Shown here piece after piece: positions 12,190 to 19,368 of a stretch of 64,000 nucleotides of DNA. Each line of letters starts with the position of its first letter. The stretch's first letter is position 1. A model generated the notes under the pieces. That model did not search any database, was not told where the DNA came from, and saw only the letters and a list, made by a program, of their open reading frames with translations. Source of the stretch: a virus; IMG/VR virus record IMGVR_UViG_3300044713_000107, positions 5,930 to 69,929 of that record; one strand, given 5' to 3'. The translations under genes and the position numbers were made by a program.

Positions 12190-12771
12190 TTACTGCCAGG
12201 GCGCGGGGCCGGTCCGGCTGGCCCAAGCGGCGAGGGCGTGTTCGTCGAGGAGCCGTAGCCCGACCCGCTTACCGAACGAGGCAGCGTCCTGCGTGAACGA
12301 CGACGTGGTCACGACCGCCGCCAACTGCGCGCCGTGGATGTCGCGGTAGGTCCCGTTCACGGCCTGCAAAGCGGGGGACCGGACGGGGTTGCCGCGGGCG
12401 TACCGCTTCGCCTGGATCAGGATCCGGCGCCCGTCCGGGGCAGTCGCGAGGACGTCAGCGGCGAGGTCACCGCCTCCGCCGACACGCTCGACGTTGCGGC
12501 ATCCGTCGCGGCGGCAGAGGTCGGCGAGGGCGTACTCGAACTGGGTGGGGTCCATCTGCTGAAAGCCGACGATGGCGCGGGCCCGGGTGAGCTTGTGGCG
12601 ACGGTGGTGGTGTCGGCGTCGCACGATCAGGGCGCTTGCCGCGAAGCAGCCGGCCGTGCACAGCACGACAGCGAGCGGGTGCTGCAGGATCGGCCACGCG
12701 ACCGCGAACAGGACCAGGAACGCGATCAGACCGGGGCCGGCGTGGTGCCGGTGCCTCCGTATCCGCCTCAC
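12190..12771 (-). CDS. Membrane-anchored Mrr-like restriction endonuclease
   Basis: QFEYALADL, GGGGDLAADV, ILIQAKRY, VVTTSSFT; two N-terminal hydrophobic helices. Confidence 0.88.
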   Translation of the reverse strand: MRRIRRHRHHAGPGLIAFLVLFAVAWPILQHPLAVVLCTAGCFAASALIVRRRHHHRRHKLTRARAIVGFQQMDPTQFEYALADLCRRDGCRNVERVGGGGDLAADVLATAPDGRRILIQAKRYARGNPVRSPALQAVNGTYRDIHGAQLAAVVTTSSFTQDAASFGKRVGLRLLDEHALAAWASRTGPAPWQ

Positions 12772-12779
12772 TGCCCTCT

Positions 12780-13223
12780 TCACCGCCTGCCCCCGATGCT
12801 GAAGCTGGAGTTGTCGCCGATCTTTACGTTGGAGATCCGGATGCCGCCCGCCACCTTGAGGGCGACGATCGCGACTGCGGCGAGCGCCACGGCGATGCTG
12901 ATCGCGACGACGGCGTGCTCGGCCATGCTCAACCCCTTGAAGAAGACCCACGATCCGCACTCGACGAGCGCCAGGCCGGCGCACCAGCAGAACCCCATGA
13001 AGCCGCATCCGTGCATGCGCGCGGGCAGCGGGTCGTAGGCGGGAAGCGGCTGGGGTTCGGGGTCGGGCTGGTAGTAGGCGATGCCGTTGGCGTCGTGGAG
13101 GACGCGGACACGGGCCGGGGCCGGGATGAGCGGCTGCGGCGTGTAGACGGCCGGGGTGCTGGTGGGCTGCGGGTCTTCGTACGCGGCCCAGTCGAAGACC
13201 TCCTCGCTGCGGTGGTGCTGCAT
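12780..13223 (-). CDS. Two-TM membrane protein (Spd-like candidate)
   Basis: Overlaps traB stop; two C-terminal hydrophobic helices. Confidence 0.6.
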   Translation of the reverse strand: MQHHRSEEVFDWAAYEDPQPTSTPAVYTPQPLIPAPARVRVLHDANGIAYYQPDPEPQPLPAYDPLPARMHGCGFMGFCWCAGLALVECGSWVFFKGLSMAEHAVVAISIAVALAAVAIVALKVAGGIRISNVKIGDNSSFSIGGRR

Positions 13224-15370
13224 CACTGCTCCTGGATGTGGTCGGTGTGGATGTAGTTGGTGCGCTCCCCGCCCGGCTGCACGATCTTCGGCTCGGCCTT
13301 CAGCCACGTGGTGACGGTCTGCCGGGACGGCGCCTTCGCGTTCGGGAACACCGCGCGGAAGGTGTCGAGGATGCCCTCGGGGTTGATGCCTTCCGGGCCG
13401 GAGGAGCGGACGATGCCGTAGACCTGGGGCCAGCGGTCGTCGCTGCTGATGCCGGGGGTGGGCGAGTTCGGACTGGCTGCGGGCGCGGGGGTGTCGTCAG
13501 TGGGGGGCGTCCAGACGCCACCGGCGCCTTCGACGATGTCGCGGAACTGGCGCTCCAGGTCGGCGTCACGGCTGGCGTTCTCGTCCATCGTCTGGTGCAA
13601 GTCCCGCTTCGCCGCATCCGCCTGGTCGATCACAGACTGCGCCTCGGGAGCCAGCGGCCCGGCCTCCGGCTTGCCCCAGTCGGCGGTGACGCTACGGCGG
13701 CGCTCGGGCCGATCCCCGACGATGCTCGTCAGGCCTTCCTCAACTGGGAACGGCGCGGAGCCGAGGCCGAAGAGGTGGTCCGTGTTCTCCCACCGCTTCT
13801 CGTAGGCGTCGCCTGCGGCTTTGCGGGACAGGTCGTCAAGGTCGGGGTGGCGGTCGCTGGTGGCCTTCACGATGTCGGCGATCTGGTTCGGCAGCATCCG
13901 GTACGCCTTGAACGGCCGCGCGGGCTCGTCCAGGATCTTCACGAAGCCGCACCCGGGGTAGGGGGCGTCGTCGGTGCTGATCCGGTCGGACCAGCCGAAC
14001 AGGTACGACATCTCCCGCTCGTCGGACTTCATGCCGATCTTCAGGCCGGACTGGGCCAGCAACTGCGGCTCGCTGATCACATCCTGCGTGGCGCGCAGCG
14101 CGGTGATGAGCGCGTTCACGGCAACGGCGCGGGCGAGCTCGACGACCTGGATGAGGGTGTCGCCGGTCTCCTTCAGGATCTCGTTCTTGCGGGCCTTCGG
14201 GGAGAAGATCTCCGCGATCTCATCGCCGACGATCATGATGCCGGGGACTGCGGCGCACACCGGCAGCTTGTCGTCGTTCGCCTCCAACTCCAGGTGCTTG
14301 TAACCCGGCTTGCGGGCCTTCGCGATCCGCAGCGCGGCCTTCGCCATCGCCAACGCCTTCGCCGGAGTGTCCGCAACCCAGTCGATCGGCGGCTTACCCG
14401 GGCGCCCGGCCTTCTCCCACGCGTGCAGCCACGCCAGCGCGAGACCACCGCCGTTGAGGTCGATCACCCACGTGATGTTGTCGGTCATGCGGACCAGGCC
14501 CGCGACCTCCACGTTCGACAGGTTCGTCTTCCCGGAGCCCTTACGTCCGGCCATGAGCGTCGACAGCTGCCGCAGTGACGGAGCAACGCGCGCACCGTCC
14601 CGGTACACGCCCATCGGCAGGCCGTCGTTCAAAGACAGCGGCGAGTAGTCCGCCGGGTAGGGCTCATCCCCGGCGAGCCGGTTCACGGTCGCCACGTTGA
14701 TCAGCACAGCACCGCGGTGCGCACCCGGGCCGACCTCAACCCCGCAGCCCTCGGGCAGCTTCGCGTCGGCGGCGAGGCCGTCCTCGAACGCCTTGAAGTC
14801 ACGCCACTTCGTGCCGTTGGAGCACTCCCCATCGAGGGTGAACCCGCCGCCGGACTCCCACTGCTCAACGCCGACGATCTGCACGGTCGCACTGGTGCAC
14901 ACCCGGGTCAGACGCTCGGTCCACTCGTCGGCGACCGCGCGCCGCTTGGCGTCCATGCTGGCCGCACGCTCAATCGCCTCGAAGCGGGCCCGTTCGTCGG
15001 CCTTCACCTCCTCGTGGTGGCGTGCGCCCTCGATCGCGGCACCGAGACCGATGCCGCCTGCGATCAGCGCGCCAATCGCCTTGCCCGTCCAGGGACCTTC
15101 AACGGTCGCCCACGAGCACCAGCCGCCGACACCCAGCCACGTGGCGGCACGCATGATCAGGGCTGAGCGGGGGATCCGCTTCTTCCGTCCGGCATACATG
15201 CTGCCGACCAGTCCGGCGCCAGCAGCACCGGCGAGCCAGCCGGGGCCGAGGTGGGCAAGGTGGTGATGGGCGAGTTCGTAGTCGGCCCAGGCAAGCGTGA
15301 GGCTCGTCCAGGTGGCGTTGATGGGGCCGGCGACGGGGCCGTGTCCGGCGTCCCAATCGATGTGCACCAC
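13223..15370 (-). CDS. traB: TraB-like FtsK/SpoIIIE conjugative DNA translocase
   Basis: N-terminal TM helices, Walker A GRKGSGKT, Walker B IVGDE, ATQ and arginine-finger GCGF region, C-terminal winged-helix-like segment. Confidence 0.88.
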   Translation of the reverse strand: MVHIDWDAGHGPVAGPINATWTSLTLAWADYELAHHHLAHLGPGWLAGAAGAGLVGSMYAGRKKRIPRSALIMRAATWLGVGGWCSWATVEGPWTGKAIGALIAGGIGLGAAIEGARHHEEVKADERARFEAIERAASMDAKRRAVADEWTERLTRVCTSATVQIVGVEQWESGGGFTLDGECSNGTKWRDFKAFEDGLAADAKLPEGCGVEVGPGAHRGAVLINVATVNRLAGDEPYPADYSPLSLNDGLPMGVYRDGARVAPSLRQLSTLMAGRKGSGKTNLSNVEVAGLVRMTDNITWVIDLNGGGLALAWLHAWEKAGRPGKPPIDWVADTPAKALAMAKAALRIAKARKPGYKHLELEANDDKLPVCAAVPGIMIVGDEIAEIFSPKARKNEILKETGDTLIQVVELARAVAVNALITALRATQDVISEPQLLAQSGLKIGMKSDEREMSYLFGWSDRISTDDAPYPGCGFVKILDEPARPFKAYRMLPNQIADIVKATSDRHPDLDDLSRKAAGDAYEKRWENTDHLFGLGSAPFPVEEGLTSIVGDRPERRRSVTADWGKPEAGPLAPEAQSVIDQADAAKRDLHQTMDENASRDADLERQFRDIVEGAGGVWTPPTDDTPAPAASPNSPTPGISSDDRWPQVYGIVRSSGPEGINPEGILDTFRAVFPNAKAPSRQTVTTWLKAEPKIVQPGGERTNYIHTDHIQEQ

Positions 15371-15409: not shown

Positions 15410-16822
15410 TCAGGACAGGTTGGTCGAGACGTCCCACATGCGCTCGCCAGCGATGCCCTTGCGCGGGTTCTCCAGGCGGGCGAGGTCGACCTGGTGGAGG
15501 CTCTTGAACGCGGGCTGCAGCTCGGCGGCGAGCTCGGAGGCCTTCAGCTGGAGACCGTGGATCTGCTTCATCAGGTCGACGATCTGCGGGTCGAGGGGGT
15601 GCTGGGCGTCGGCCTTGTCGACGGTGACCCTCATGGCCTCGGCAACGAGCTCCAGGCCCTCCTGGAGTCCGGCGAAGTCGGCGCCGACCTGGAGCATGCC
15701 GGTGGGTTCGTAGGCGGCTGCGGCGCGGGCCATTTCCATGGCGGGGCCGGTGAAGTGGTGGCCGGGCATGAGGGTTCCTCCGTTGGCGGTTCGGGTGATC
15801 TGGTTGGTGGGCTTGCGGACGACGGACGAGATGGTGGGTTCGGGCTTGGCCGGGTCGGTGGTCTTGTTCTTGCGGTTGGCGCGGTGCTGCTTCCATGCGG
15901 CCCAGGCTTTGGCGAGGCCCTTCTTGATGGACCAGTGGCGCAGCGTGCCCCACACGCCGGTGCGGATGGCGCGGAGGGCGTCGGCGGTGAACCCGCGGGA
16001 CTTCCGTCCGGCTTTCTTCGCGGCAGCCCACGACTTGGTGCGCAGCGGCTTGCTGGTCTTCCACGCCTTCGAGGCACCGGCACCGGCGAGGCGACCGGCA
16101 CCCGCGGCGGCGCGCCCGACGTGACCAGCCGTGGTCTTCGCGGCACGGCTGGCGGCGGACGGGCTCGTCTTCGAGGACTTCTGGGAGCGGTTCGAGTTGC
16201 TGCCGTTGGAGCCGGCGGAGCTGCCTCCATCGCGGCGGTTCCTGGTTCGCTGCGAACCAGGACCGCTAGCCGTGCTTCCGGTTCCGCTTCCGTGCGAACC
16301 AGCGCCCGCAGGCGAGCCGGAACCAGACCGCGAACCACCGCCGCTGGAACCTGCGGAACCCGTTGAGGTACGCCACGGCGAACCAGCCGCCGAGGTTCGC
16401 GAACCACCCGACCCGGAACCACGCGAACCCCAGCTCGAACCCGTGCCGGAACCGCCCCACGAACCGCCGCGTGAACCACCGGAACCGAACCCGCCGGAAC
16501 CGAGCGAGGACCGGCGCCGAACCTGACGGCGCCGGCGAACCACAGCCGCCACCGCCCCCAACGCAACCACCCCGCCAGCCGCGGCCAGCGCGGGCAGACC
16601 ACCCGCCTCCGCCGCAGCCGTCAGGCCCATCGCGGTCGCGTTGCCGGTCGCAGCGAGCGCCGGCCCGGCGGGGATGCCGCGCTTCTTCGCGGGCTTCTCC
16701 TTGGCCTCCTTCGGCTCCGCAGCCTGCTGCCCGGCGGGTACAGCCCACCCGGCGGTGAGAGTCGGCGCGGGGATCGTGATGGTGGCCGGCTCCGGGGCGG
16801 GCGCGACCTGAGTGTCCGCCAC
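15410..16822 (-). CDS. TraA-like transfer accessory protein (TM, Gly/Ser linker, helical C-terminus)
   Basis: RBS AGGGAGG; directly upstream of traB; C-terminal RMWDVSTN motif recalled from actinomycete plasmid tra operons. Confidence 0.6.
   Translation of the reverse strand: MADTQVAPAPEPATITIPAPTLTAGWAVPAGQQAAEPKEAKEKPAKKRGIPAGPALAATGNATAMGLTAAAEAGGLPALAAAGGVVALGAVAAVVRRRRQVRRRSSLGSGGFGSGGSRGGSWGGSGTGSSWGSRGSGSGGSRTSAAGSPWRTSTGSAGSSGGGSRSGSGSPAGAGSHGSGTGSTASGPGSQRTRNRRDGGSSAGSNGSNSNRSQKSSKTSPSAASRAAKTTAGHVGRAAAGAGRLAGAGASKAWKTSKPLRTKSWAAAKKAGRKSRGFTADALRAIRTGVWGTLRHWSIKKGLAKAWAAWKQHRANRKNKTTDPAKPEPTISSVVRKPTNQITRTANGGTLMPGHHFTGPAMEMARAAAAYEPTGMLQVGADFAGLQEGLELVAEAMRVTVDKADAQHPLDPQIVDLMKQIHGLQLKASELAAELQPAFKSLHQVDLARLENPRKGIAGERMWDVSTNLS
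16250..16501. repeat. Polar GAACC/CGGAACC repeat cluster 1
   Basis: About 17 GAACC, including CGGAACC at 16318, 16354, 16414, 16447, 16480, 16495, all in one orientation. Confidence 0.85.
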
Positions 16823-16836
16823 AGCGGGCCTCCCTT

Positions 16837-16935
16837 GGTGTCGTCGTCGGTGTCGTCGTCAAGCGGGATGGGGTGTCATGGGCGCAGGTGGAGGGGGTGA
16901 TCTAGGTGGTGTCGTCGGGCGACGACGACACCACC
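16837..16935. repeat. Intergenic GGTGTCGTCGTC direct repeats plus 13-bp hairpin
   Basis: 12-mer at 16837 and 16849, 10-nt partial at 16908, inverted copy 16921-16932; hairpin 16905-16935. Confidence 0.8.
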
Positions 16936-16939
16936 ACCA

Positions 16940-17830
16940 TCAGTTGGGCGGGCTCTGCTCGTTGGCCTCAGACCAGGCGGTGCGGGCCTCGACGAGCCGG
17001 TTGTAGGAGGTGGTCTTGGACCATCCGGTCTCGTCCATGACGAACTTGAGCTTCACCGTGTCGAAGCCGTGCTCGTCGATCAGGTCGAGGATCTGCCGGA
17101 CCTGCTCGGTGACAGGCGGTATGGCCGGCTGCTGTCCCGAGTTGGCGGCCGGCGCGAGCGCAGGGCGGGCAGCGGCGGCGTTCGGCCTGGTTCGCTTGGG
17201 CTGGTTCCGGACCAGGCTCGGGCCAGTAGCCGGAACCTGCTTCAGGGTGGGCTGCTGAACCGGGTTCGGAACCGTCGACGGAACCTGCGGTGCTGCCGGG
17301 TTCGGAACCTGGGCGGTCGTCTGGCTCACGGGGTTCGGAACCTGGTTCGCCGGGGTTCCAGCGGGCTGGTTCGGAACCTGCGCGGTGGGGTTCGCCGGAA
17401 CCTGAACCTGTGCCGTCACCGCAGGGTTCGGAACCGTCTCCGCGAGCGCGGTTCGGGATTCCGCTTCGGGGTTCGCATGGACTACCGTCTCGGCGAGCGC
17501 GTGGACTCGCCAGATCGTCAACGGAACCAGGATCGACACGAACGCGACGAGCGTGACGGACACCTGAACCTGTCCGGCATCGAGGAGACGGGCGGCGATC
17601 TGAGCGCACGACATGATCGCGAGAGCGAACGCCAAATCCGGGCGACGCCCAGCACGAACCGCAGCCACGACGTACGCGTCGATCGCGAGAGGAAGCGCCG
17701 GAGCAACCCACGACGGGGCGCCGATGATCCGGGCCAGCTGCCACTCGGAGACTGCCGTCCACACGACGCCGGCTGCGACCGACAGGCGGACGAGCCAGAC
17801 AACGGCCGTGTCCCTGGCTCGTTCGCTCAT
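16940..17830 (-). CDS. SpdA/DUF2637-like membrane protein with QVPNP repeats and C-terminal HTH
   Basis: Four TM helices, ALPLAIDAYVVAA motif, C-terminal VMDETGWSKTTSYNRL. Confidence 0.7.
   Translation of the reverse strand: MSERARDTAVVWLVRLSVAAGVVWTAVSEWQLARIIGAPSWVAPALPLAIDAYVVAAVRAGRRPDLAFALAIMSCAQIAARLLDAGQVQVSVTLVAFVSILVPLTIWRVHALAETVVHANPEAESRTALAETVPNPAVTAQVQVPANPTAQVPNQPAGTPANQVPNPVSQTTAQVPNPAAPQVPSTVPNPVQQPTLKQVPATGPSLVRNQPKRTRPNAAAARPALAPAANSGQQPAIPPVTEQVRQILDLIDEHGFDTVKLKFVMDETGWSKTTSYNRLVEARTAWSEANEQSPPN
17231..17435. repeat. Polar CGGAACC repeat cluster 2
   Basis: CGGAACC at 17231, 17267, 17279, 17303, 17336, 17372, 17396, 17429; five occur as GGTTCGGAACC. Confidence 0.85.
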
Positions 17831-17901: not shown

Positions 17902-18153
17902 TCAGGAGGTGGTGTCGTCGGAGCTGGGCCCGGTCTCGATGGCGGCGGCGATGCGGGCGTATGCGGCGGCGAGGGCGGTGTGGGCGTCGACGGTCCGCAT
18001 CTGGTGGGCCTGTTCGCGCTCGGGGTAGCTGCGGCGGAGGAGCTTCGCGGCTTCGTGGGCGTGTTCGACGGCTTTGGTGAGGAGCTCCTCGCGCTTGGGT
18101 TGGTGGTCGCCGAGGTTGATGCGGACTCGGCTGGTGGGCTTGTTGTCGGCCAT
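17902..18153 (-). CDS. Small helical hypothetical protein
   Basis: RBS GAAGGA; inside tra operon. Confidence 0.6.
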   Translation of the reverse strand: MADNKPTSRVRINLGDHQPKREELLTKAVEHAHEAAKLLRRSYPEREQAHQMRTVDAHTALAAAYARIAAAIETGPSSDDTTS

Positions 18154-18285
18154 GCGGGTCCTTCCGTCGGGGTGGGTGGCTTGGGGTCCCGGGCGCGGGC
18201 TTTGCGGTGGGGGAGCCGTGTGGACTCGCGCCCGGGGGTTGGCGGTCGGGTGGTGCGGCCGGTTTCATCCGCACGGCCCGACCAG

Positions 18286-18516
18286 TCAGTTGGCCTGTTG
18301 TGTCAGGCGTTGGTGTGCTTCCTGCGGGTCGAGGAGGACGTCGCGTGCGAGCGTGCCGCGTGAGGGTCCGACGATGCCGTGGGCGGCGAGCTGGTCCATG
18401 AGCCGTTCGGCGGTGGAGAACCGGATGCGGAGCTTGCGCTGGAGCATGTTGGTGGAGCCGAAGCGGGTGGTGGTGATGATCTCGGCGGCCTGGAACAGGA
18501 GGTCGTCGGCGGTCAT
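18286..18516 (-). CDS. Stand-alone FtsK gamma (winged-helix) domain protein
   Basis: AAEIITTTRFGSTNMLQRKLRIRFSTAERLMDQLAAHGIVGPSRGTLARDVL matches FtsK gamma consensus; ATG overlaps upstream stop. Confidence 0.88.
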   Translation of the reverse strand: MTADDLLFQAAEIITTTRFGSTNMLQRKLRIRFSTAERLMDQLAAHGIVGPSRGTLARDVLLDPQEAHQRLTQQAN

Positions 18517-18953
18517 CAGAACGCGGCCCAGGCGTGCGGCTGCCCAAGGACGATGCGGTCGTAGGTGCGCTCGGTGCGCTCGTGGGAACCCTCGGCTTCG
18601 ACGGCGGCGAGCTGGGCACGAACCTGCTGGCGGGTCATCGAGACGGGGCCGTGTGGGGCGGTCGGGATGGAGTCCCAGTCGAGGTCGTGGCTCAGCGGGC
18701 GGGCGGTGAGCGGCCGGGCGGGCGGAGCCGGGCGCGGGCCGAGACCGGAGGGCTTGCGCGGGCCAGGGACGCGGGGGATGGCCGGCTTGTCGTCGTCGGT
18801 GTCCCAGCCCTGCGGGGCTGCTGTGCTGCTGATGGTGCTGGCGATACTCTCCATGTGTCTGCCCATTCGCTTCGGAGTGGTTGGGCGGCTTGGCCCGGTC
18901 GGTGTTCGCGCACTGGTCGGGCCGTCTTGCTGAGAACCGGGTGCGGTTCCCAT
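18516..18953 (-). CDS. Pro-rich hypothetical protein, first gene of tra operon (probably leaderless)
   Basis: ATG 18953 lies 7 nt after a TAGGGT -10; alternative ATG at 18854. Confidence 0.5.
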   Translation of the reverse strand: MGTAPGSQQDGPTSARTPTGPSRPTTPKRMGRHMESIASTISSTAAPQGWDTDDDKPAIPRVPGPRKPSGLGPRPAPPARPLTARPLSHDLDWDSIPTAPHGPVSMTRQQVRAQLAAVEAEGSHERTERTYDRIVLGQPHAWAAF

Positions 18954-18959
18954 GAGACA

Positions 18960-19000
18960 AACCCTAGGGCTTGTTCGTAGGCATGGCAAGCCCTAGGGTT
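18960..19000. promoter_or_regulatory. Symmetric divergent promoter pair / operator
   Basis: Perfect 14-bp IR aaccctagggcttg...caagccctagggtt; minus strand TTGCCA-17-TAGGGT; plus strand TTGTTC-17-TAGGGT. Confidence 0.8.
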
Positions 19001-19044
19001 GGTGTCGTTGGATCTGCACTCCCCAAAGGGAAGGGAGCGCGGGC

Positions 19045-19368
19045 GTGTCGAAGGAGCCCAAGGAGGTGGAGAGGCTGTTGGAAGCCATCGCAGCGTTCGA
19101 GGCCATCGATGACGACGCCGAATGCACGCGCGTCGTGTCTCAAGCACTCAAGGACTGGCCTGAGCTCCACTCGCGCCTTCGCGCGCTGCGGCAGGCCCGT
19201 GTGCAGTCTCTTCGCGAACAGAAACTGTCGTGGGCTCAGATCGCTGAGATCATCGGAGGCGAGATCACGCCCGAGCGTGCCCAGCAGATCGGCAAGGGCC
19301 TCAGTGGCGCCACCCGCAAGAAGGCCAAGCGGGAAGCCGAGGCCGCGGCGGAGAAGCCGGCCGAGTAG
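19045..19368 (+). CDS. HTH repressor candidate of tra operon
   Basis: LSWAQIAEIIGGEITPERAQQI; divergent from tra operon. Confidence 0.75.
   Translation: MSKEPKEVERLLEAIAAFEAIDDDAECTRVVSQALKDWPELHSRLRALRQARVQSLREQKLSWAQIAEIIGGEITPERAQQIGKGLSGATRKKAKREAEAAAEKPAE

Follow-up and report, generated by a model that had tools for sequence, protein, structure and literature searches.

The locus described here raises the question of what a single FtsK gamma domain, encoded as a gene of its own, could do for the virus that carries it. The window, meaning the whole stretch of DNA that was analysed, comprises 64,000 nucleotides and is part of an IMG/VR record (IMGVR_UViG_3300044713_000107) with a total length of 80,846 bp. 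The record encodes a major head protein, a portal, a protease-like protein and a large terminase, as well as a serine integrase, DnaB, an RNA ligase/PNKP, a C5 methylase, a ParB_N protein and two Nudix proteins. As a virus record with head, portal, terminase and serine integrase genes, the element is, by its gene content and by the homologues of its 715-aa protein, a temperate tailed phage of Streptomycetaceae and not a conjugative plasmid. An earlier note on this DNA had placed the gamma gene in a transfer operon. This stands in so far as a TraB/FtsK-like translocase is encoded in the same operon; the setting is that of a tailed temperate phage and not of a plasmid. A megablast search of 12 kb against a plasmid collection returned no match. 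Among sequencing runs, the locus was detected in soil-metagenome DNA runs only, of which one may be its source, and in no RNA run. The genome contigs that were searched held FtsK-type genes at 51-63% identity only and no close prophage copy, so that the host can be placed no lower than the family.

The product of the gene, P0001, is one complete FtsK gamma winged-helix domain.

18286..18516, minus strand: free-standing FtsK gamma gene, product P0001, 76 aa (translation, Pfam, AF2 and Foldseek, homologues, dN/dS)

P0001 matches the Pfam family FtsK_gamma (PF09397) with an E-value of 7.6e-19; the score of 67.6 bits exceeds the cut-off of 30.6, and the alignment spans positions 3-62 of the 63 in the profile. 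This HMM match, which had been proposed as a check, bears out the earlier view that the 76-aa ORF, with the motifs quoted for it, is a gamma domain and nothing else. The sequence can be aligned to the PDB gamma domains of E. coli and P. aeruginosa, and an AF2 model built on nine homologues reaches a pLDDT of 88.5. The best PDB matches of the model in Foldseek are 2J5P, 2VE8 and 2VE9 (TM 0.7-0.88, rmsd 1.1-2.0 Å), and its winged helix superposes on the solved gamma structures. MarR/GntR-type regulators are returned below these in the same search. P0001 thus shares the family and the fold, three helices plus wing, of the known gamma domains (PF09397; E. coli 2J5P; P. aeruginosa 2VE8/2VE9; the XerD-gamma fusion 5DCF). 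It differs from them in having no linker and no tether to a motor, in an extra predicted C-terminal helix (residues 64-75), and in recognition-helix residues that are unlike those of both E. coli and actinobacterial FtsK. In cellular FtsK/SpoIIIE, gamma is covalently attached C-terminal to the alpha-beta motor, whereas P0001 is a separate gene with its own start and its own stop, and the motor gene lies ~3 kb away.

The boundaries of the gene are well marked. In the third-position GC plot, the P0001 frame is coding only from ~18330 to 18516, and upstream of this the coding frame switches. This change of frame supports the 76-aa reading. A 224-aa stop-to-stop ORF in the same frame was considered as the gene and ruled out by the GC frame plot and the homologue lengths. 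The start codon of P0001 (ATG, 18516-18514) and the stop codon of the ORF before it (TGA, 18518-18516) overlap as ATGA, which confirms the translational coupling within the operon that had been noted earlier. With the coding frame starting near the ATG, the ATGA overlap and relatives that start at the same methionine, the gene is real, free-standing and coupled.

A database search for relatives of P0001 returned eight further protein clusters, all of 74-76 aa and all with the same start methionine at the domain boundary. The length is thereby kept across nine clusters down to an identity of 57%. The dN/dS is 0.17 between relatives and 0.37-0.59 in comparisons with P0001, a range that leaves out L011, where the gene is offset by one codon. 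By these ratios, the P0001 gene is under purifying selection. The earlier note had named decay without conservation as the outcome that would undo its reading, and these lengths and a dN/dS below 1 describe the opposite. In a gamma-domain tree, built on 66 columns only and with long branches, the free proteins group in a single clade (95/88), separate from the gamma domains that are fused to motors, which have long branches. This separation hints at separate recruitments and suggests that gamma joined the motor module more than once. In PLSDB, three matches (H1, H27 and the H17/H18 pair) have no annotated feature; the feature table is incomplete, and its gaps could fit full-length FtsK-like genes.

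The gamma gene stands second in a minus-strand operon, which begins at a divergent control region. The order is ORF X, gamma, a 132-nt structured spacer, an 83-aa ORF, a DUF2637-like gene, a motor-adjoining gene, the gene of a 715-aa protein, a 148-aa gene, Mrr_cat and DUF2079. Related loci (L numbers) were compared by blastp at the level of ORFs.

18941..19368, plus strand: probable operon control region, comprising the 33-nt inverted repeat I1 (18941-19019) and a divergent 107-aa HTH-like gene (19045-19368)
18516..18866, minus strand: ORF X, ~112-116 aa, from the sequence; start possibly as far as 18989, stop overlapping the gamma ATG
18154..18285, minus strand: 132-nt spacer 3' of gamma with two GC-rich hairpins (RNA fold -61.2 kcal/mol, z -3.0; alignment A3)
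18188-18197 / 18227-18236: inverted repeat I2, in the spacer
17902..18153, minus strand: 83-aa ORF, the next gene of the operon (GC3 gene call)
16940..17830, minus strand: 296-aa ORF, homologue of DUF2637 proteins (52% identity to the DUF2637 gene of L009), containing the second array
17231-17522: second GGTTCCG array, inside the 296-aa ORF, reading CGGAACC on the plus strand
16318..16501, minus (operon) strand: first polar GGTTCCG array, 6 copies (7-mer count)
15410..15955, minus strand: conserved gene directly upstream of the motor, which it always adjoins (79% identity in L009; 50% in L067 and L043)
13223..15370, minus strand: FtsK/TraB-like DNA translocase P0010, 715 aa (phrog_31069, AF2, Foldseek)
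12780..13226, minus strand: conserved 148-aa gene after the motor (synteny in L009 and L011)
12190..12783, minus strand: Mrr_cat restriction-endonuclease-like gene, end of the conserved module (Pfam PF04471, 2.1e-24; synteny in L009, L011, L067 and L101)

Homologues of ORF X lie upstream of gamma in L005 and L008/L009, and a further one is found in L101, a locus without gamma. The 3' part of the spacer is likewise conserved in L101 (blastn of L101 against L008), which makes the spacer a probable part of the next gene's leader. Its hairpins are kept in L005 and L008; in the second stem, at least one change seems to be compensatory. The 83-aa ORF that follows (17902..18153) has no match in Pfam or PHROG. 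In one free-gamma lineage, a weak T5orf172/MUG113-like gene is located between gamma and the DUF2637 gene (L011:7395-8192 and L012:11313-12110).

The largest protein of the module, P0010, matches phrog_31069, annotated as FtsK/SpoIIIE-like, at 3.5e-89, and has no Pfam match, PF01580 included. In its AF2 model (pLDDT 80), four helices at the N-terminus precede a RecA-like ATPase, and residues 647-712 form a C-terminal winged helix. The best PDB matches of the model in Foldseek are the FtsK motor (2IUT/6T8B) and the FtsK-like coupling protein TcpA (6O1X), with E-values of ~1e-15. An FtsK-like P-loop motor fold with N-terminal helices and a C-terminal winged helix is the layout of TraB-type proteins. 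From the PHROG match, the modelled architecture and the FtsK/TcpA structure matches, TraB is a fair name for P0010. At least 284 homologues were found, mostly in genomes of Streptomyces, Streptacidiphilus and Actinacidiphila; others occur in the Streptomyces phages Galactica, Hiyaa, Spocter, Keanu and ZL12 and in a Thermobifida phage.

Two winged helices are therefore encoded in the operon, that of P0001 and that of the motor (647-712), and they are unrelated in sequence. P0001 was also considered as the TraB-type DNA-reading domain itself and ruled out: it matches PF09397 and the FtsK gamma structures, and the sequence of the motor helix differs. This agrees with the earlier proposal that P0001 resembles chromosomal FtsK gamma rather than the C-terminus of TraB, and P0001 is 51-66% identical to actinobacterial FtsK gamma domains. 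To our knowledge, TraB of the pSVH1 type has no FtsK gamma. In L005 (13247-15274) and L011 (9487-11526), the motor slot is occupied by a P-loop ATPase of ~675 aa. The L005 protein has 24% identity to P0010 over 207 aa and a Pfam FtsK_SpoIIIE match; the L011 protein has no significant similarity to P0010. The flanking genes are still homologous, which indicates that the motor was either replaced non-orthologously or has diverged extremely.

The relationship of gamma to the motor takes three forms. In all free-gamma lineages with enough context (the window, L008/L009, L005 and L011), a P-loop FtsK-like ATPase of 675-715 aa is encoded downstream in the same operon, and the short contig of P0003 has the same module start. 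In the second form, at least five homologous motors carry gamma fused at their C-terminus. P0011, a 792-aa protein of the provirus L067, is 52% identical to P0010 over residues 2-699 and ends in a Pfam-significant FtsK_gamma domain. This domain follows the motor's own winged helix via a low-complexity linker of ~20-35 aa, with no stop between. Four more fusions of the same build (P0084, P0087, P0088 and P0092; 782-795 aa; Streptomyces) are present among the best 120 of the at least 284 motor homologues. The motors of the fusions are homologous to P0010 (52-56% identity), and the attached domain is of the same family as P0001. At L067, the one fusion locus examined, the flanking genes are also the same, with a homologue of the 15410 gene upstream and Mrr_cat downstream. 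The arrangement differs: in the fusions gamma is covalent and follows the motor winged helix, whereas here it is a separate gene ~3 kb upstream.

In the third form gamma is missing. L101 is the closest motor relative on a long contig, with a motor 82% identical to P0010, the same GGTTCCG arrays, and ORF X and the flanking DNA conserved. Gamma is absent from it, and two unrelated small ORFs fill the slot. Gamma was also absent from L102, from L103 and from the complete 51.7-kb plasmid of Streptomyces NBC_01177, which carries the motor. In the cultured Streptomyces phages that have a homologue of the motor, no gamma match was obtained. Judged by its absence from the closest motor relative, gamma is optional and dispensable for the motor module. 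The site of the swap lies between ORF X and the DUF2637 gene: L008:9795-10231 holds a 69-aa ORF and gamma, and L101:4719-5174 holds unrelated ORFs of 92 and 54 aa. The earlier proposal that gamma acts in trans with TraB thus gains indirect support, as the same domain is fused C-terminally to homologous motors, and is tempered by L101, which does without it. A complex prediction with motor residues 130-715 and gamma, both entered as alignments, gave ipSAE values of 0.01 and 0.00, which is evidence neither for nor against contact.

The polar arrays in the operon seem to go with one of the two winged helices, that of the motor. GGTTCCG occurs on the operon strand in 15 copies within 16318-17522, against 7 elsewhere in the window, and its relative positions are unchanged in L009, which carries a free gamma, and in L101, which lacks the gene. 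Across five motors compared, the array word covaries with the recognition helix of the motor winged helix (PSRQTVTxWLKAEP vs PHAATIGRWLxADP). As the same word is present in gamma-less L101 and the covariation is with the motor recognition helix and not with gamma, the GGTTCCG arrays are most simply viewed as a candidate clt-like site of the motor. If gamma does read DNA, its target must then be a different one.

Each motor lineage has its own arrayed 7-mer, mostly on one strand (the window, L009, L101, L102, L103, L043, L067 and L011). Other words are CGCTACG in L102, GTAGCGG, the same word inverted, in L103, and GCCGAAG in L011. Typically, two such blocks precede the motor gene at distances of ~1 and 2 kb; in L011 they lie closer to it (-591 to -174). 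P0010 can be compared in this respect with the TraB/clt system of the Streptomyces conjugative plasmid pSVH1. The two share the FtsK-like motor fold, the N-terminal helices and the C-terminal winged helix, and the polar arrays of short words near P0010 are like the 8-bp clt repeats. They differ in that the element here is a tailed phage and the word is GGTTCCG, not GACCCGGA. Recognition of 8-bp repeats in clt by plasmid TraB is stated in a passage of PMC4447253 that cites Vogelmann 2011.

Searches for a word that gamma might read were also made. The E. coli KOPS, GGGNAGGG, occurs 9 times in the window against 14.7 expected and is not enriched, although this is the E. coli consensus and that of the host may differ. 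The pSVH1 TRS, GACCCGGA, is not enriched either (7 against 5.4 expected). In the 80.8-kb genome as a whole, a de novo search for 8-mers that are over-represented or skewed to one strand produced no convincing candidate word for gamma.

The reading preferred here, to which a probability of about 0.45 is given, makes gamma an optional accessory that reads DNA for the translocation module of the phage. It draws on the fusions, taken as Rosetta-stone evidence, and on the constant sharing of an operon with an FtsK-like ATPase, even a highly diverged one. P0001 would derive from a captured FtsK-type gene of an actinobacterium and would have been retained as a separate protein of 76 aa, encoded in a promoter-proximal, variable slot of the TraB/FtsK-like operon. 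There it may serve the translocation module as an optional second DNA-reading head. We infer that it binds DNA, that it has a target word of its own and that it contacts the motor, physically or functionally. The words bound would be short and other than the GGTTCCG arrays, and the protein would guide, load or gate the phage pump, as the covalently attached gamma does for FtsK. Loading of FtsK at KOPS by gamma is described in passages of PMC3130261. Bacillus phages fuse gamma to the small terminase, part of another DNA-translocating machine (PMC8190038). A bolder version of the accessory reading, and a rather improbable one, has the locus encoding a split FtsK-type machine. Here the free gamma would be a detachable specificity subunit that docks on the TraB-like hexamer or on adjacent DNA and adds a second word recognition, derived from host FtsK. 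This would allow directional, virion-free movement of the phage's own DNA, and possibly of the host chromosome next to it, from one hyphal compartment or mycelium to another.

The recognition helix offers a means of weighing this accessory role against one directed at the host. At the turn and the recognition helix, most free gammas read RVGFAKAGQLMD, which is near to the host-like form, that of actinobacterial FtsK being RVGFAKAGRLMD. P0001 and its 96%-identical twin read RIRFSTAERLMD. P0001 departs from its relatives at six positions of this region (RIRFSTAER vs the clade consensus RVGFAKAGQ). At the residues aligned with E. coli N1296, R1300 and E1303, which we take to be the KOPS-contacting positions of the helix, P0001 has S, R and D, and the host-type actinobacterial domains have A, R and D. 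Seven of the nine free-gamma proteins have Q at the residue aligned with R1300, presumably the arginine that contacts KOPS; P0001 keeps R. The fused gammas vary at the recognition helix still more than the free ones. Together, the dN/dS values (0.17 vs 0.37-0.59), the helix changes in P0001 and the variability of the fused domains suggest a DNA specificity that is diversifying, rather than one kept to mimic the head of host FtsK.

Mimicry is the basis of the first alternative, a possible but doubtful one. It holds that gamma imitates the head of host FtsK and either competes for KOPS-like words or for the Xer partner, or activates Xer away from the septum, thereby disturbing or exploiting host chromosome processing during infection or lysogeny. 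The 51-66% identity to actinobacterial FtsK gamma and the near host-like helix in most of the free clade speak for this reading, as does its location in a replaceable slot of the kind occupied by morons. Passages of PMC3130261 report that the isolated E. coli gamma suffices to activate XerCD-dif recombination in vivo and in vitro. The six clade-departing residues of P0001, however, are not expected of a mimic, and the Q at the R1300-aligned position in most free gammas also counts against this role. In the contexts seen, a free gamma is found only within the motor operon, and the phage integrase is of the serine type, not the Xer type. The lack of KOPS enrichment in the window points in the same direction, with the reservation made above that the host's word may differ from that of E. 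coli.

The second alternative, an unlikely one, makes P0001 an ordinary small winged-helix DNA binder of the early operon, derived from gamma and independent of the translocase. It could be a regulator or an accessory of the nucleoid or of partition. The position of gamma as second gene after the divergent control region and its inverted repeat fits with this, as do the MarR/GntR-type regulators below the gamma structures in the fold search and a ParB_N gene nearby in two lineages. A dedicated divergent HTH-like gene, however, already stands at the control region. It has homologues in L005 and L008, with a weak HTH_23 match in relatives. No known regulator family is built on PF09397, and a regulator independent of the translocase would hardly explain the recurrent covalent fusion to the motor. 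As to the control region itself, the 33-nt inverted repeat (18941-19019) is 82% complementary and contains CCCTAGGG. Matches to miRNA families in Rfam are spurious products of this repeat, and nothing real was found in Rfam; a sigma-70 promoter scan found nothing.

The third alternative, a decayed and functionless fragment of a captured FtsK gene, has in its favour the absence of gamma from L101 and the relaxed dN/dS (0.37-0.59) and clustered recognition-helix changes on the P0001 branch, but is highly improbable in view of an intact ORF of constant length across nine clusters down to 57% identity, a start exactly at the domain boundary with translational coupling, strong third-position GC, a dN/dS below 1 and a confident predicted fold.

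Free phage gamma domains are already known. Single FtsK_gamma ORFs occur in some phages, with their role described as unknown, and a TerS-gamma fusion is present in the Bacillus phages Sam46 and Sam112 (PMC8190038). These are likewise phage-borne gamma domains outside FtsK. P0001 differs in that it lies in an actinophage TraB-like operon and not beside a terminase, and in that homologous motors carry gamma fused. What is new is this context, a free gamma in a phage TraB-like operon, along with the fused, free and absent states within one motor family. The locus supplies a concrete and testable partner for a free gamma, namely a phage TraB/FtsK-like pump with natural gamma-plus, gamma-minus and gamma-fused variants. 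Should the accessory reading be true, the sequence-reading head of a hexameric DNA translocase can be a separate subunit. The view that some temperate Streptomyces phages move DNA through the mycelium in a conjugation-like manner that does not depend on virions would gain support as well. Should the link to the motor be false, P0001 would be one more small uncharacterised putative DNA binder.

Gamma domains are also present in actinophage proteins of the phrog_6152 type, which are ~350-375 aa long with gamma at the C-terminus. Examples are gp52 of Gordonia phage Kiko and, among Mycobacterium phages, gp55 of Purky and gp46 of Rebel, annotated as "FtsK-like DNA translocase" or as sliding clamp. 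Their gamma domains are 43-53% identical to P0001. In these proteins, gamma is fused to an N-terminal domain of ~280 aa and encoded among RecT/RusA recombination genes; it is neither free nor near a translocase. A further arrangement is seen in metagenomic proteins, including P0133 (729 aa) and P0134 (204 aa), in which FtsK gamma stretches follow one another in tandem, two or three per protein. P0134 consists almost entirely of three gamma domains and resembles, as a natural counterpart, the engineered gamma3 construct.
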